64,000 nt of DNA from the IMG/VR virus record IMGVR_UViG_3300030107_002332, one strand, 5' to 3'. The notes under the pieces are model-generated. The model worked only from the letters and a program-made list of their open reading frames with translations. It had not been told where the DNA came from and made no database searches. Positions 31,708 to 41,444 of the stretch are shown here, in pieces; position 1 is the first letter of the stretch; each line of letters starts with the position of its first letter. This stretch comes from a virus. Both the position numbers and the translations under genes were made by a program.

Positions 31708-32741
31708 TACAGTTCCGAAGCTTCTGTATATAAAGATCGCATAACCTTCTTGATGTTAGGCTTACTTACCTTTAGATCTATCTCATCTATGTAGTTGTCT
31801 AAAAGGGTCATAGTGTCTTCGGTTTCCAATACCGCACTACCACTCTCCAGTTCCACACTAAGATCTTCAATAATCTTAAGATCTGCAAGACCTATGTCTT
31901 GAAGTTGTTTAACTGCATAATCAAATTTGGTGTAGTCACCCTTGTCTTCTACTATGAGTTTGACAAAAGTTCCCTTGAGTTCATTTTCGTCTGGTAAAGC
32001 AACTCCATCATTATAGTACAACTTATGGAAAGTGTCAAAGGGATTTCTATAAAAAGTTGTCTTAAGAGTTTCTGTATCAAATACATGGAACCCTCTCTTA
32101 GTACCATAATCATTCCAATACAACTGATAAGGATTACCAAGATAATATACGTTGTCTGTATTTGACTTCTGATGATAATGTCCTGAGAATACCTTCTTAA
32201 ATTTACTGAATGGAGACACCTCCATACCAGCATCCATCACATGACCAGGATGAGCCTCAAAGCCGTTAAGCTCAAGATGGCCCATACAGACAGGAGCAGT
32301 ACTGTCTGCGATGCTTCGGAAGGTTCTGTCGTAGTTGTCATCACATATCCAAGGAAGAAGTAGAATGTCAATACCACCAAAGTTACTGGTAGTAGGCTCT
32401 TCAATGATATCCATGTTGTCGTATTCTCCCAATAGTTCTGTTGGGGAATTAATTCTAAGAGTATTTTTATAGTAGATATCATGGTTGCCTATTAATGTAG
32501 TCATATGACAACCCAATTCTTTTACAGGGTCAAACCACATCTCCTTTGCCTCATCAAGAGACATGAAATTAATAAACCGTCTTCTATCAAAGGTATCACC
32601 TAAATTTATAATGGTTTTAATCTTTGATGCTTTTAAAAACGGTACTACTATCTCACCATAAAACTTCTTATAATGAGAAATGAAATGTTGATTGTCATTC
32701 CGTACACCGAAATGCTGATCTGTTATTAATAATATCTTCAT
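31707..32741 (-). CDS. g47: Recombination endonuclease subunit, SbcD/Mre11-like (gp47)
   Basis: TDQHFG, LGDTFD, GNHD, SGHYH. Confidence 0.95.
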
Positions 32742-33256
32742 GACAGATCATCAATAGTATACAACGAATATAATTCTACCTCTTGATCATACCATAAAAA
32801 TGGTTCATACTCTTTCCTATCTACAATAGTAACAACTCTTTCTACATCATATCCTGCTTCACGTAACTTTGCTACTGCCTTAAGAGATGATCCACCAGTG
32901 GTAACAACATCTTCTAATACTGTAACCTTAGTACCTTCTGGATGCACTGGACCTTCTATCCATGCACCAGTACCATGACCTTTAGGTTCCTTACGGATAA
33001 TTAAGGCATCAAGACTTCCCTTCATAGCAACACCTGCTACTAAAGGATCTGCACCAAGAGTAAGACCTGCCACTACAGGGGTATCAACATACTTCAATAG
33101 CATTGTAGCAGTAAGGTTCAACCCATAACCATTTAGTATGACAGGTTTGCAATTGACATAATGCTCACTGGTCTTACCAGAAGACAATTTATACTCACCC
33201 TTACGGTAAGCCCTCTCTTTTATCAGTGTTAGTAAGGCTTCTTTAACGCTTGGCAT
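32738..33256 (-). CDS. pyrE: Orotate phosphoribosyltransferase
   Basis: [31 protein letters not shown]. Confidence 0.92.
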
Positions 33257-33807: not shown

Positions 33808-34251
33808 TTATAAGTTAAATAGTTTTTCAAACTTGGCACGTGCCTCATCAATTTTTCCAAGATATCCTTTAGCATTTTGAATACTAGATCTCTTACGTGC
33901 TACTCGTTCCTTTTTTGCATCATTATTTTCATCCTTTTCATTAGCAAGATAAGTTTCATACATTAATACTACTTCCTTACTCATAGAGGCGACGGCAATG
34001 ATATCTTTTTCACGAATAATATAAAATTCTTCATCAGATAATTGCATCCAGCGATGGAAACCCATTCCACGCATCATCTTATCTTCTGATATTCTTTTTT
34101 CTATAACTTGTATCACAACAGGATCACTTATGAAACATAGAGTTTCATTACTTTCATTCGTTAAAACAGCTTTACCAAGGATCTCTTCTCCATTAAGGAG
34201 TTTAAAAACTCCGTAAAACTCTTCATCATGTTTAGCGTAATTAATTGCCAT
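33808..34251 (-). CDS. Conserved hypothetical protein (possibly Sm-like fold)
   Basis: FKLLNGEEILGK; usual position between uvsW and g55. Confidence 0.75.
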   Translation of the reverse strand: MAINYAKHDEEFYGVFKLLNGEEILGKAVLTNESNETLCFISDPVVIQVIEKRISEDKMMRGMGFHRWMQLSDEEFYIIREKDIIAVASMSKEVVLMYETYLANEKDENNDAKKERVARKRSSIQNAKGYLGKIDEARAKFEKLFNL

Positions 34252-37740: not shown

Positions 37741-38640
37741 CTATTTAGTCACGTACCCAATGACCCCATCTATCTCTATTTCAGGTGGAACAATTAGTAC
37801 AAAACCAATACCCATATTAAATACTCTTCTCATTTCTTCCTCTTCTATCTCACCTGCTTCTTTTATCTTATTAAAGATCTCTGGCCTCTCCCAAGAAGTC
37901 CAATCAATATTAGCCTTTAATCCTTCAGGTAATATACGTGGAACATTCTCAATCAATCCACCACCTGTGATATGTGCCATACCTACAATAGGTATCTCAT
38001 CCAGTAGATCTTTAACCTGTGGCCAATAGATTGTAGTTGGTGTAAGTAACTCAGGAGTATCCTTATAATAAATCTTATGTCTCCATAACATATCATTGAT
38101 AAGACTGTATCCATTACTATGCAGTCCACTACTGGGTAATCCTACTATCTTATCACCTTCTTTAATTAGACTACCATTAATAATTTCATTCTGTTCTACA
38201 ACACCTGTACAAAATCCTGCAAGATCATAGTCTTTAGCAAACCTACCATGTTCAGCAGTCTCACCACCTAAGAGATGTACCATTGCCAGATCACATCCCT
38301 TGATAATACCTTCCATTATCTGATCTGCTTTATCATCTAACTTCTCACAAGAAATATAATCTAAGAAGTATAATGGATGTGCTCCACAACAAATCACATC
38401 ATTAACACACATAGCAACAAGATCTATACCAATGGTTGTCCAATCATTGAACACCTGTGCCATATTAATTTTAGTACCTACACCATCAGTACCAGAAACT
38501 AATACAGGTTTCTCATAACCAGATGGTAATGGTATCATTCCATTAAACCCACCAATGTGAGGAAGTTTTGATTTTAATCTTTGAACAAATGCATTACCAG
38601 CATCTATATCAACACCAGAGTCTTTATAATTCATAATCAA
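37741..38640 (-). CDS. purM: Phosphoribosylformylglycinamidine cyclo-ligase (AIR synthase)
   Basis: YKDSGVDI, GTDGVGTK, GGETAEH, SSGLHSNG, HITGGG, FNMGIG. Confidence 0.95.
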   Translation of the reverse strand: MIMNYKDSGVDIDAGNAFVQRLKSKLPHIGGFNGMIPLPSGYEKPVLVSGTDGVGTKINMAQVFNDWTTIGIDLVAMCVNDVICCGAHPLYFLDYISCEKLDDKADQIMEGIIKGCDLAMVHLLGGETAEHGRFAKDYDLAGFCTGVVEQNEIINGSLIKEGDKIVGLPSSGLHSNGYSLINDMLWRHKIYYKDTPELLTPTTIYWPQVKDLLDEIPIVGMAHITGGGLIENVPRILPEGLKANIDWTSWERPEIFNKIKEAGEIEEEEMRRVFNMGIGFVLIVPPEIEIDGVIGYVTK

Positions 38641-38849
38641 TCAGTTATTCCATATTTTGTTAGATCATACTTAGGTAACCTTAATGGTTCATGTTCCACT
38701 TTGGGTGGTTTACCTATTATATCCTCAACATCAGATACTATCTTCTTCTTAGAGATATGATATGGTGTTGGTGCATTTTGTAAGCACACTTGTAAACACA
38801 GTAGTTGCTCATCAGTGAATGTAAAGGTATGATCAGGCATGAACTGCAC
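38637..38849 (-). CDS. Small hypothetical protein
   Basis: 70 aa, ATGA-coupled to purM. Confidence 0.65.
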   Translation of the reverse strand: MQFMPDHTFTFTDEQLLCLQVCLQNAPTPYHISKKKIVSDVEDIIGKPPKVEHEPLRLPKYDLTKYGITD

Positions 38850-39033
38850 AAGAAGAATGAGGATCCCAACAATCAGGACATTCCATTTCCGTCTGATAGT
38901 TTTCTAACTTATGGATTAAATCATCCATCTGTCTATCAAAATAATCAGCACCTTTTTTCTTGTGGTCAATACGTTCCTTTCTCCATTGACATGTCCATAT
39001 CAATCTTTGGATATCACGTTCGTTAAATTGCAT
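38833..39033 (-). CDS. Small hypothetical protein with CPxC motif
   Basis: 66 aa directly downstream of the tRNA. Confidence 0.65.
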   Translation of the reverse strand: MQFNERDIQRLIWTCQWRKERIDHKKKGADYFDRQMDDLIHKLENYQTEMECPDCWDPHSSCAVHA

Positions 39034-39072
39034 TAGAGGATATAATCATAATAAGATATATAGTATTTTAAA

Positions 39073-39160
39073 CTGTGAGGGATGGAGTCGAACCATCAAG
39101 TCCCGCAAGCAGAACAGCAGGGAAACAGCCTGCCACGTTTACCAGTTTCGTCACCTCACA
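39073..39160 (-). tRNA. Atypical 88-nt tRNA, anticodon GUU (Asn), long class II variable arm, U37, no encoded CCA
   Basis: Acceptor TGTGAGG/CCTCACA + G73; D arm ACG/CGT with GG; anticodon stem GCAGG/CCTGC, loop CT-GTT-TC (GTT at 39126-39124); V arm GTTCTG/CGGGAC; T arm GATGG-TTCGACT-CCATC. Confidence 0.9.
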
Positions 39161-39168
39161 TTGAAGCC

Positions 39169-39966
39169 CTATTTAAGGGCTGAGATTATACGGGTCATTC
39201 CGATCCCTCCACCACTTCTGGGGAAGAAGTCAAAGTCAAGGAACTGTTCAAGTTCTTGCTCTACCCTACTTCTACCAAACTTGTCTATAATCAGTTGAGC
39301 ATAACCTCCATCTGATATAGTATAGAATGTATCACGCATTTGATCCTTGTCGGTACTCCTTTCAGCACTACCGATAGTTTCCATGCCACCTAATATAACG
39401 TCAATCTTTTTACTTGTCCCATCAGTATTTCTTGCCATATTCCAGAATGGTGATGTCCACTCAGGGAAGTCAGTAATCATACCTCTACCAATTTGTTTCT
39501 CATGATCATGGTCTATCTCCTTAGTCTTAAATGCCTCAGCCCATGATGCATATTTTTTAATGTTATATTCTTCCAATGGTACACCTAACCATTGACACAA
39601 TTCTATCTCCATTTCTTTTAGTTCTTCTACACCACCCTTCATTTCAAATTCAAACATGGGGAAGATAGTCTCATGTCTACCTGGTACAGGATTTGGTTCT
39701 GCTCTATAAGATGTAGAGACACAGAAAAACCCTTCTTCTGAAGGGTTAGAAAGTAATTCATGTTCAAGCCACATCTGACCTGTCTGTGGTAGTGGCCAGA
39801 TATTACCACCATAATTATAACTTGCTACGGTTTCTGGATCTTCACAAGCAGCAAGGATGCTTAATCTATTTTGTGTGTGAACTTCCAGAAAGTTTTTAGA
39901 CAAAAAAAACGACCTCAATAGGCCGACAGCATCTGAAAATTCTCTTGGATCAATCAAACTCGTCAT
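39169..39966 (-). CDS. Stand-alone class II aminoacyl-tRNA-synthetase catalytic domain (AsnRS/AspRS-like, no anticodon-binding domain)
   Basis: 265 aa from MTSLIDPREF; motif 2 STSYRAEPNPVPGRHETIFPMFEFE; ETIGSAER; motif 3 PRSGGGIGMTRI. Confidence 0.85.
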   Translation of the reverse strand: MTSLIDPREFSDAVGLLRSFFLSKNFLEVHTQNRLSILAACEDPETVASYNYGGNIWPLPQTGQMWLEHELLSNPSEEGFFCVSTSYRAEPNPVPGRHETIFPMFEFEMKGGVEELKEMEIELCQWLGVPLEEYNIKKYASWAEAFKTKEIDHDHEKQIGRGMITDFPEWTSPFWNMARNTDGTSKKIDVILGGMETIGSAERSTDKDQMRDTFYTISDGGYAQLIIDKFGRSRVEQELEQFLDFDFFPRSGGGIGMTRIISALK

Positions 39967-39986
39967 TATTTTTGGACAAACTAATC

Positions 39987-39992
39987 TATTTA
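39987..39992 (-). promoter_or_regulatory. Late promoter TAAATA for the synthetase-like gene and tRNA
   Basis: Between the g23 terminator and ATG 39966. Confidence 0.65.
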
Positions 39993-39994
39993 GC

Positions 39995-40024
39995 AAAAAA
40001 AAGAGACCCCTCTGGGGTCTCTTT
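39995..40024 (-). terminator. Rho-independent terminator of g23
   Basis: AAAGAGACCCC-3nt-GGGGTCTCTTT hairpin with poly-U on minus strand. Confidence 0.85.
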
Positions 40025-40043
40025 GAAGTATGTATCCGAAGGA

Positions 40044-41444
40044 TCACATTAGGTTTGCAACCTGTACACGTCTGTAATACTTGTTAGTATTAGCAGTAAG
40101 TGCTCCAGAACCTTGGGTAAGACCTTGTGCGAAGGGGTTAGAAACCATTCCGTAACGAGTCTTGAAGCCAATTTTTGGTTGGAAGGTGTTAGGGTTGATC
40201 GCTCTGACTTGCTGTAGAGGAACGTAAGGACAGTAGAACAGTCCAGCGTCATATGCAGAAGTACCTTTGTAACCAGCAACATAGAAGTGCTTGTCACTAA
40301 CGTTAGCAGAGTATGGGTCAACGTATACCTTGATGCGTCCGTTAAGAGTACCAACAAGAGTTGAAGATGTATCGTCTACACCAGTCAATCCGTTGTTACC
40401 ATTAAGAGCAGGAGCGTAGTCAAGAACGCCAGCCATTCCAAGAGCAGATGCAACGTCTGCAGAGCAAATTAGAATGTTGCCCTTCCCGCGACGAGTTTGC
40501 TGCCCGATAGCGTTAGCATCTCTTTCGATCTGGAACAGAAGTCCTTTGAACTTCTCAACAGACCATCTACCATTACTGTCAACGTCAAGGTCAAATATAC
40601 CTGCGTCAGCAACGTTATTCTGAGCACCTTCTACTGCGTTAACATAGATCGTACGAACGACTTCTCTGTTAATTTCAGCAAGGATCTCAGTTGAGAGGAT
40701 GTTAGCTAACTCTTGCTCGGCATCAAGACCATGAATTGCTTTCAAGTCTTGAGCAAGCTCGATACTGTACTCAGCTTTTAGAGCACGTGACTTAGCAGTA
40801 ACCGTCACCTTCTCGATGGAGAATCCCATCTCTCTGAAGGCTGTGTTTACAGCACTGTCATCTAATGCTTCAGCAGTGGCTGTTGCCATACCTTCAGCAT
40901 CACCAGTCTTCTCGTAAGTACCAGCAGAACTGTCGTTAAGAACAGCAGGGTTAGCACCTTCTGCGTCGTTAACAGCACTTGATGATGCAGTTGGGTCATA
41001 CTTAGCAAGACCTGTTCCTGGACCACCTGAGAAACCTGCGTTAGGCTCGTTGAAGAATGCTTCTCTGAAGTCGGAAGAAGCAGGACTTCTCTCGTCTCCG
41101 TAAGCAGTTCTCATTGCAAAGATAAGTCCTGTTGGACCTGTCATTGGTTGAACGCCAGCAATATCATAGGCGATCAACATAGGCATTGAACGTCTGATTA
41201 GTGAGATCAGTACGGGGTCGAAACCAGCAACTGGACCAGTTGCGGTTGCACCAGCACCATATCCACCTGTGCCTACTGTTTGTAAAGTCTCATTAAGGAT
41301 CTGTCCTTCTTCGACTTGTGCTTTTTCTTGGTTCTCTAAGAGTTGTGCGACTACGCCTTTCTTATAAGAATCTTCTATCTCTGGAAGAGCATCGTGATTC
41401 AGAACGGGTGCCCACTTCTCTTGGAGTTGCTTAATATCAGCCAT
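40044..41444 (-). CDS. g23: Major capsid protein (gp23)
   Basis: AGVQPMTGPTGLIFAMR, SRALKAEYSIELAQDLKAIHGLDAE. Confidence 0.98.
   Translation of the reverse strand: MADIKQLQEKWAPVLNHDALPEIEDSYKKGVVAQLLENQEKAQVEEGQILNETLQTVGTGGYGAGATATGPVAGFDPVLISLIRRSMPMLIAYDIAGVQPMTGPTGLIFAMRTAYGDERSPASSDFREAFFNEPNAGFSGGPGTGLAKYDPTASSSAVNDAEGANPAVLNDSSAGTYEKTGDAEGMATATAEALDDSAVNTAFREMGFSIEKVTVTAKSRALKAEYSIELAQDLKAIHGLDAEQELANILSTEILAEINREVVRTIYVNAVEGAQNNVADAGIFDLDVDSNGRWSVEKFKGLLFQIERDANAIGQQTRRGKGNILICSADVASALGMAGVLDYAPALNGNNGLTGVDDTSSTLVGTLNGRIKVYVDPYSANVSDKHFYVAGYKGTSAYDAGLFYCPYVPLQQVRAINPNTFQPKIGFKTRYGMVSNPFAQGLTQGSGALTANTNKYYRRVQVANLM

Follow-up and report, generated by a model that had tools for sequence, protein, structure and literature searches.

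The stretch of DNA analysed in this work (64,000 nucleotides, IMG/VR virus record IMGVR_UViG_3300030107_002332, hereafter the window) comes from a T4-like cyanomyovirus, encoding gp21, gp22, gp23, UvsY, UvsW, purM and a 2-oxoglutarate-Fe(II) oxygenase. Its gp23 reaches 89% identity to those of cultured cyanophages, and the phage is a marine cyanophage. Behind gp23 lies a gene whose product resembles asparaginyl-tRNA synthetase (AsnRS), followed by a gene for a tRNA-like RNA which had been overlooked in an earlier interpretation made from the letters alone (the sequence-only reading). We refer to this second element as the captive tRNA-like gene. The present analysis concerns both genes and the evidence that tentatively connects the AsnRS-like protein with pyrimidine synthesis. 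The features of the locus are the following:

40044..41444, minus strand, gp23 major capsid protein gene, which marks the T4-like cyanomyovirus (context)
40000..40024, minus strand, intrinsic terminator hairpin of 11 bp with a T run, after gp23 and just upstream of the start of the AsnRS-like coding sequence
39169..39966, minus strand, AsnRS-like coding sequence (CDS) of 265 aa, a class IIb catalytic core without anticodon-binding domain (PHROG 29758)
39073..39160, minus strand, captive tRNA-like gene of 88 nt (ARAGORN), a cloverleaf with a long variable arm
38637-39033, minus strand, two small open reading frames (ORFs) of 70 and 66 aa, between the tRNA-like gene and purM
37741..38640, minus strand, purM (aminoimidazole ribonucleotide synthase), a neighbouring nucleotide-metabolism gene given as context only
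32738..33256, minus strand, pyrE (orotate phosphoribosyltransferase), TIGR00336 at 128 bits against a cut-off of 106.8

The ATG at 39966, located 34 nt past the gp23 terminator, is the likely start codon of the AsnRS-like CDS. A longer ORF with a GTG start at 40047 would span the terminator hairpin and was discarded for that reason. The tRNA-like gene begins 8 nt past the stop codon and no terminator was found in this gap; the two genes are probably co-transcribed.

The phage protein is an intact class IIb core that lacks an anticodon-binding domain. The class II D/K/N core (PF00152) spans residues 11-264 of its 265 residues, and motifs 1-3 are present. The residues of motif 2 (SYRAE...GRH..F.MFEFE) and motif 3 (GGGIGMTR), including the arginine of each, as well as the Mg/ATP residues D189, E196, R203 and R259, were found to be kept throughout the family to which the protein belongs. 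An AlphaFold2 model built with 45 diverse relatives as input reached a pLDDT of 96.2 and a pTM of 0.92, and its top structural matches are AsnRS enzymes (human 8H53, Brugia 2XTI, Thermus thermophilus 9SH8 and Pyrococcus horikoshii 1X54), followed by archaeal/eukaryal AspRS (Z about 25), the archaeal AsnRS-like asparagine synthetase AS-AR (Z 24.0), and LysRS and GenX (Z about 23). Its alignment covers only residues 242-528 of the human and 130-418 of the T. thermophilus AsnRS, and an oligonucleotide-binding (OB)-fold anticodon-binding domain was not found N-terminally, where the protein begins at the catalytic core. The sequence-only reading had described intact motifs 2 and 3 and a protein starting directly at the catalytic core, both of which agree with these results. 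Its general idea of a stand-alone class IIb paralog that probably does not perform ordinary tRNA charging also survives.

Concerning the substrate, the family profile has its best match in AsnRS (3e-14), and in the profile alignment the pocket motif LPQTGQMWLE pairs with LTQSSQLYLE of AsnRS. Going by AspRS and AsnRS structures, we take this pocket to follow the AsnRS pattern, with a Glu and no AspRS-type Lys. At the same time, all NCBIfam matches of the protein fall far under the cut-offs: canonical AsnRS models score 17 bits against 342.6 and 16 against 414 (TIGR00457 / NF003037), AspRS-ND 24 bits, and the AS-AR model NF005055 20.1 bits against 389. PHROG 29758, whose function is unassigned, matches at E 1.5e-165.

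Two identities proposed by the sequence-only reading can be addressed at this point. As regards AsnA (TIGR00669), neither the phage protein nor the 45 relatives gave an NCBIfam match, no AsnA was detected by hidden Markov model (HMM) in the family-bearing genomes tested, and this proposal thus finds no backing in the HMM searches. In the structural comparison, AsnA is not among the 50 best chains listed for the model. The second was EpmA/GenX, a ligase that would modify a protein, for instance EF-P, with an amino acid. Although the same truncated class IIb architecture is found in EpmA, the phage protein scores 12 bits against a cut-off of 286.9 (TIGR00462), its pocket motif is AsnRS-type rather than LysRS-type, and no EF-P or EpmB/C neighbours were seen in the gene neighbourhoods looked at. 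We thus regard an EpmA-like function as highly improbable.

The RNA gene downstream is the only tRNA that ARAGORN reports in the 64 kb (39073-39160, minus strand), where it is called tRNA-Asn(GUU) with a length of 88 nt. In its 7/5 cloverleaf the acceptor stem has 7 bp and the D stem 3 bp, the T arm is normal and the variable arm is long; the gene does not encode CCA. The anticodon loop reads CUGUUUC (G34 U35 U36, with U37), the first acceptor pair is U1-A72 and the discriminator is G73. In an Rfam search of 38800-40200 no family exceeded its threshold, the standard tRNA models included; the best clan match is tRNA-Sec, at 22.8 bits against a gathering score of 47.

An alignment of 53 distinct sequences of this RNA showed that the cloverleaf and variable arm are 99.9% paired, compared to 41-49% in slid controls. 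Compensatory changes were observed in 19 of the 24 base pairs, a level reached in none of 500 shuffles. The variable arm ranges from 14 to 40 nt and its stem covaries. U1-A72 is the only one of the seven acceptor pairs that never varies, and G73 as well as G34 U35 U36 U37 are likewise invariant (U37 in 53/53), while position 33 is C in some clades. The RNA therefore carries several features of an elongator tRNA-Asn, namely the cloverleaf, the GUU anticodon, G73 and U1-A72, and departs from it in lacking the short variable loop and a purine at position 37.

The anticodon together with G73 constitutes the bacterial Asn identity set, U1-A72 is a mark recognised by the Asp-tRNA(Asn) amidotransferase, and t6A37 in yeast acts as an antideterminant against AspRS (PMC9976931). 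When the covariance model of the tRNA-like RNA was applied to tRNAs of huge phages, tRNA-Leu scored highest (51-63 bits), followed by tRNA-Asn (46) and tRNA-Ser (40), which fits a Leu-like body. Based on these identity marks, the captive tRNA resembles a class II (Leu-like) tRNA body that has naturally received a transplanted Asn identity, with a position 37 that resembles that of a non-decoding RNA. Since the phage enzyme has no anticodon-binding domain, another partner must read or select the invariant anticodon. We infer that this reader could be a host non-discriminating AspRS (ND-AspRS) or AsnRS, or else the ribosome.

The association between the two genes was found to hold in both directions, with totals over ocean phage contigs of 78/78 one way and 105/105 the reverse way. 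Starting from the enzyme gene, the full RNA element lies 7-15 nt past the stop codon in 75 of 80 IMG/VR loci (L006-L085), and the contigs of the remaining five end too early to show it. Starting from the RNA, 105 of 118 IMG/VR loci picked by the tRNA signature pattern have the AsnRS-like gene within 400 nt upstream; of the other 13, 11 have no upstream sequence and two have no gene. The latter two (L222 and L232) were considered as examples of the tRNA without the gene and were rejected as chance pattern matches with no tRNA there. In the marine phage clade the AsnRS-like gene was never found without its own tRNA-like gene on contigs that are long enough, and the tRNA-independent function proposed by the sequence-only reading is thus doubtful for this clade.

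The linkage also extends to cultured phages and to different genomic surroundings. In the Prochlorococcus phage P-SSM7 the pair occupies the same place behind gp23, whereas P-SSM2 and P-SSM5 carry it in another neighbourhood, and in P-SSM2 the captive tRNA is the only tRNA found in the locus. Among relatives at 67-68% identity the tRNA-like gene is located 25-190 nt downstream, with variable arms of up to about 40 nt. Cultured carriers are rare, comprising three cyanophages and three huge-phage records among 50,697, which is in line with the earlier remark that synthetase-like genes are uncommon in phages; this does not apply to metagenomes, where the AsnRS-like gene is abundant and was found in no fewer than 596 IMG/VR loci and over 8000 protein clusters.

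Some contigs bearing the gene pair (L096-L100, L113) are binned as a Poseidoniia archaeon, Bacteroidetes, Flavobacteriaceae, Legionellales and Neomarinimicrobiota; these parts of cellular metagenome-assembled genomes (MAGs) are probably mis-binned phage DNA. In a separate MAG contig, an ordinary 72-nt tRNA-Asn(GTT) lies 247 nt after a family member of 43% identity (L169:4057-4128). At no other cellular locus was a tRNA-Asn found nearby, and the proximity may be due to chance.

The strict linkage raises the question of what ties the RNA to the enzyme. The main rival to the pyrimidine reading developed below is a private Asn-charging pair, in which the anticodon-blind core would charge its own tRNA(GUU), recognising it through G73, U1-A72 and perhaps the variable arm, and the product would decode AAC/AAU during infection independently of the host supply of Asn-tRNA. 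We consider it possible, if doubtful, and rank it above the AS-AR-like and EpmA-like readings. It is favoured by the two-way association of probably co-transcribed genes, by the conservation of the link in different neighbourhoods (behind gp23 in P-SSM7, elsewhere in P-SSM2), by the AsnRS-like pocket and the AsnRS enzymes as best structural matches, and by an invariant anticodon that suits decoding and completes, with G73, the bacterial Asn identity set. However, U37 is invariant where decoding tRNAs carry a purine, position 33 is C in some clades, and the Rfam tRNA models remain below threshold.

Alternatively, the tRNA-like gene may act alone and have hitch-hiked to the enzyme gene, serving either to lure away or to make good the attack of an anticodon nuclease on host tRNA-Asn (decoy or replacement), or as a processing or stability element at the 3' end of the mRNA. 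U37, together with C33 in some clades, may resemble loop changes that evade nucleases, and with an 8-nt gap and no terminator, cleavage by RNase P would set the mRNA 3' end. Nevertheless, a two-way linkage across hundreds of contigs and two contexts would be hard to keep without a functional tie, and a mere processing element needs no invariant GUUU, G73 and U1-A72. This explanation appears quite unlikely to us.

An exhaustive search of 1.84 billion cluster representatives returned 649 AsnRS-like relatives at E <= 1e-3, a number so small that the family is evidently distinct from canonical AsnRS, AspRS and LysRS. The NCBI name of the relatives is 'amino acid--tRNA ligase-related protein'. The phage protein is 43-68% identical to the cellular members. 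At 43-60% identity, the MAGs that contain the family belong to Weeksellaceae/Moheibacter, Chitinophagales, Alpha- and other Pseudomonadota and Myxococcota, and furthermore to Chlamydiota, Babeliales, candidate-phyla bacteria and DPANN archaea. Several such members reside on megabase contigs with housekeeping neighbours. A full-length AsnRS accompanies the family member in four of five carrier genomes, indicating that the latter is not a replacement synthetase.

The connection with pyrimidine synthesis emerges from these cellular relatives. P0125, which is 56% identical to the phage protein, is a fusion of dihydroorotate dehydrogenase (DHODH, PyrD) with the family domain, and in P0150 the family domain is fused to orotidine 5'-monophosphate (OMP) decarboxylase (PyrF). 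The immediate neighbours at 67 cellular loci include DHODH (8), OMP decarboxylase (2) and phosphoenolpyruvate carboxykinase (PEPCK; 14, all in one lineage), and tblastn located DHODH inside 10 cellular loci of Bacteroidota, Alpha- and other Pseudomonadota and unclassified MAGs. Aspartate carbamoyltransferase (PyrB) exceeded its cut-off in none of 11 carriers, whereas all 14 controls and 48 of 59 Weeksellaceae lacking the family have it. In five carriers examined for the neighbouring steps, no dihydroorotase (PyrC_multi) scored over the cut-off and carbamoyl-phosphate synthetase (CarB) did so in two, while DHODH is present in 8 of 10 carrier genomes. Genomes of the Moheibacter type have kept PyrD, whereas CarB, PyrB and PyrC were not found in them.

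The phages add a corresponding observation. In the window, pyrE lies about 6 kb downstream of the AsnRS-like gene on the same strand, and P-SSM7, P-SSM2 and an IMG/VR phage with a complete genome of 179 kb encode it as well. Of about 460 cyanomyovirus records, six contain pyrE, and these six, which represent P-SSM7, P-SSM2 and P-SSM5, are also the ones with the AsnRS-like gene.

The cellular data also bear on the suggestion, made in the sequence-only reading, that the enzyme makes free asparagine. In such an AS-AR-type, tRNA-independent synthetase, Asp, ATP and NH3 would yield Asn, the gene would be a nitrogen or amino-acid auxiliary gene, and the tRNA would be a separate passenger. The architecture is indeed the same, a stand-alone core of 265-295 aa, with about 290 aa in AS-AR; the AlphaFold2 model superimposes on AS-AR with an rmsd of 2.4 over 239 residues at the Z of 24.0; and 11-12 of 45 family members give matches, all of them weak, to 'asparagine synthetase A' (AS-AR) models. 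In addition, while AsnA was absent by HMM from all five carrier genomes, AsnB was found in three and was absent from two, and the reduced carriers G005 and G006 have AsnRS and neither AsnA nor AsnB. On the other hand, the AS-AR model is matched at 20 bits where 389 are needed, AsnRS matches better by both profile and structure, and three of the five carriers already possess AsnB. The PyrD/PyrF fusions, the missing PyrB, the co-occurrence with pyrE and the obligate tRNA would all be left unexplained. The core does resemble AS-AR, as supposed, but synthesis of free asparagine is in our view unlikely.

In one of these reduced genomes, G006 (Absconditabacterales, reached via L118), in-frame TGA codons were observed in AsnRS and other matches, in keeping with genetic code 25.

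In a maximum-likelihood phylogeny built from 53 members of the family, all tRNA-linked proteins fall into one clade (support 97/98), whose sister is a pair of tRNA-less contigs (support 91/96); together they are nested among pyrD-linked members and fusions. Only three conserved positions, all of them with conservative changes, set the tRNA-linked clade apart from the other family members, and the clade is more acidic (median pI 4.7, net charge about -20), with no basic surface gained. Because the clade is nested, shows only these three conservative differences and has gained no basic surface, we read this as a single addition of the tRNA to an enzyme whose chemistry would be the same in phage and cell. 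A single acquisition of the tRNA is also compatible with the private charging pair. That account, however, has to accommodate relatives tied to pyrimidine genes, a full AsnRS kept in four of five carriers, the co-occurrence of the gene with pyrE, and a phage clade without any sequence sign of a new function or an RNA-binding surface.

Based on the PyrD/PyrF fusions and neighbourhoods, the absence of PyrB from carriers and the co-occurrence with pyrE in cyanophages, we favour the reading that the protein is an AsnRS-derived adenylate-forming ligase of the de novo pyrimidine pathway that acts at a step before PyrD and PyrE. We hold this tentatively, at a probability of roughly 0.4. The enzyme would probably make dihydroorotate or a precursor of it from Asn or Asp and ATP, without carbamoyl phosphate, a reaction that we infer from the genes surrounding its relatives. 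Five of the six atoms of the dihydroorotate ring are already contained in asparagine, and closure of that ring forms an amide bond at the beta-carboxyl of aspartate, which is the same chemistry as that of AsnA. Candidate routes would be the ring closure of Asn with CO2, the reaction of Asp with urea, or an ATP-driven closure of carbamoyl-aspartate, in each case by an AsnA-like formation of an amide. What the enzyme makes would then pass to host PyrD and phage PyrE and so raise the supply of UMP and deoxynucleoside triphosphates during infection.

As for the RNA, host enzymes may load the captive tRNA with Asp or Asn by means of its Asn identity marks, and the loaded molecule would then serve as a private carrier that presents the substrate to the phage enzyme, with U37 and the long arm keeping it out of normal decoding. 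This host-loaded private substrate carrier is the explanation that we prefer, as yet unproven, and it is the most economical link of the tRNA to the enzyme. In a stricter version, the ring of dihydroorotate would be built directly on Asp or Asn loaded onto the captive tRNA(GUU) by host ND-AspRS and the amidotransferase GatCAB, using ATP and a one-carbon or nitrogen donor and bypassing carbamoyl-phosphate synthetase, aspartate carbamoyltransferase and dihydroorotase. In cellular relatives the same reaction would start from free Asn or Asp, or from their normal tRNA-Asn. We consider this tRNA-dependent entry into the pathway improbable.

Several observations weigh against a role in pyrimidine synthesis. 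The link derives from relatives that are 43-60% identical and not from the phage gene itself, and the phage pyrE is 6 kb away rather than adjacent. DHODH was not detected in the small carriers G072 and G073 and gave only a weak match in G005, and no pyrD neighbourhood was found in the branch comprising Chlamydiae, Babeliales, Woesearchaeota and huge phages; the link may thus hold for part of the family only. MAG incompleteness could explain some of the missing pyrimidine genes, and a pocket like that of a true AsnRS also fits plain activation of Asn. Furthermore, such a tRNA is absent from relatives that lie beyond the marine phage clade, and the pyrimidine reading gives the tRNA no proven role. 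Specifically, no adjacent tRNA-like gene was found in huge-phage and IMG/VR relatives at 44-52% identity: the huge-phage records contain only ordinary tRNAs, located elsewhere, and two long IMG/VR contigs showed no match to the tRNA model.

Compared to known systems, the phage protein shares with canonical AsnRS motifs 1-3, the ATP/Mg residues, the Q-x-x-Q-x-x-L-E pocket and the G-S-x-R arginine, but it is only 20-23% identical, lacks the anticodon-binding OB domain and has relatives linked to pyrimidine genes. Archaeal AS-AR (AsnRS2; 3P8T, 3REU, 1NNH), a stand-alone AsnRS-like core of similar size, shows that an AsnRS paralog can become a metabolic enzyme; it differs in belonging to a separate HMM family, in having a gene context other than PyrD/PyrF/PyrE and in having no partner tRNA. 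The marks U1-A72, G73 and the anticodon of the captive tRNA match those read by ND-AspRS and GatCAB on tRNA-Asn, and its long arm and non-standard form recall the tRNA-Sec of the SelA system, whose sub-threshold score is the only Rfam match. A dedicated tRNA is likewise a feature of the systems in which an amino acid is transformed on its tRNA (ND-AspRS with GatCAB; SepRS/SepCysS; SelA), although here the partner is a synthetase-like core and no amidotransferase or tRNA-modifying enzyme is encoded beside it. Finally, huge phages also combine synthetase-like genes with phage tRNA genes. Those synthetases are full-length and their tRNAs ordinary, whereas the present enzyme is truncated and the chimeric tRNA occurs only behind this gene; huge-phage members of the AsnRS-like family have no adjacent tRNA.

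The gene appears in a published table as 'tRNA ligase', T4-GC 194, in P-SSM2 and P-SSM7 (PMC3037559). A literature search found no functional study of the cyanophage AsnRS-like gene, of the long-armed tRNA or of a synthetase-like pyrimidine enzyme. As far as we have seen, U1-A72 as the sole invariant acceptor pair, the exact overlap with pyrE in cultured cyanophages and the lack of clade-specific change in the protein are new. Should the enzyme supply dihydroorotate or a precursor, it would represent an undescribed start to pyrimidine synthesis, would account for the 'missing' pyrB, pyrC and carB in genomes of Bacteroidota, Proteobacteria and candidate phyla, and would be a new auxiliary metabolic gene in some of the most abundant viruses of the ocean. 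Whatever its role, the captive tRNA would either belong to an orthogonal-style synthetase/tRNA pair that arose in nature or provide a new example of a tRNA serving as metabolic cofactor.

The neighbourhoods of the family gene offered additional observations. In Weeksellaceae/Moheibacter (14 loci; L121-L133, L137, L140 and similar) it is always located just downstream of ATP-dependent PEPCK and also adjoins gldB and gldC. The substrate of PEPCK, oxaloacetate, is the precursor of aspartate. On a Chitinophagales chromosome (L149:3952-5655) the family gene is located between DHODH and a 567-aa Amidohydro_3 protein, which may work together with the family protein, for instance as a cyclase or hydrolase.

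In the window, purM (37741-38640) is close to the AsnRS-like gene, with the tRNA-like gene and the two small ORFs between them, and its placement next to this gene in the sequence-only reading is approximately correct; a Pfam search of the 66-aa ORF gave no match. Directly after the tRNA-like gene (window 39040-39072) most loci show an A/T-rich motif, e.g. AAATAACTATATA or AAATCTATTTAT, which may be a promoter for the next genes. Many metagenome contigs (L030, L036, L059, L068, L076, L081, L082) break off within the tRNA-like gene or no more than about 100 nt past it. This suggests an assembly breakpoint, and the stretch that follows the gene pair may be hypervariable or repeated. Farther along the window, an ORF at 33808-34251 (minus strand), between uvsW and pyrE, encodes a 147-aa product with a strong Sm_like match (PF16243, 3e-44).

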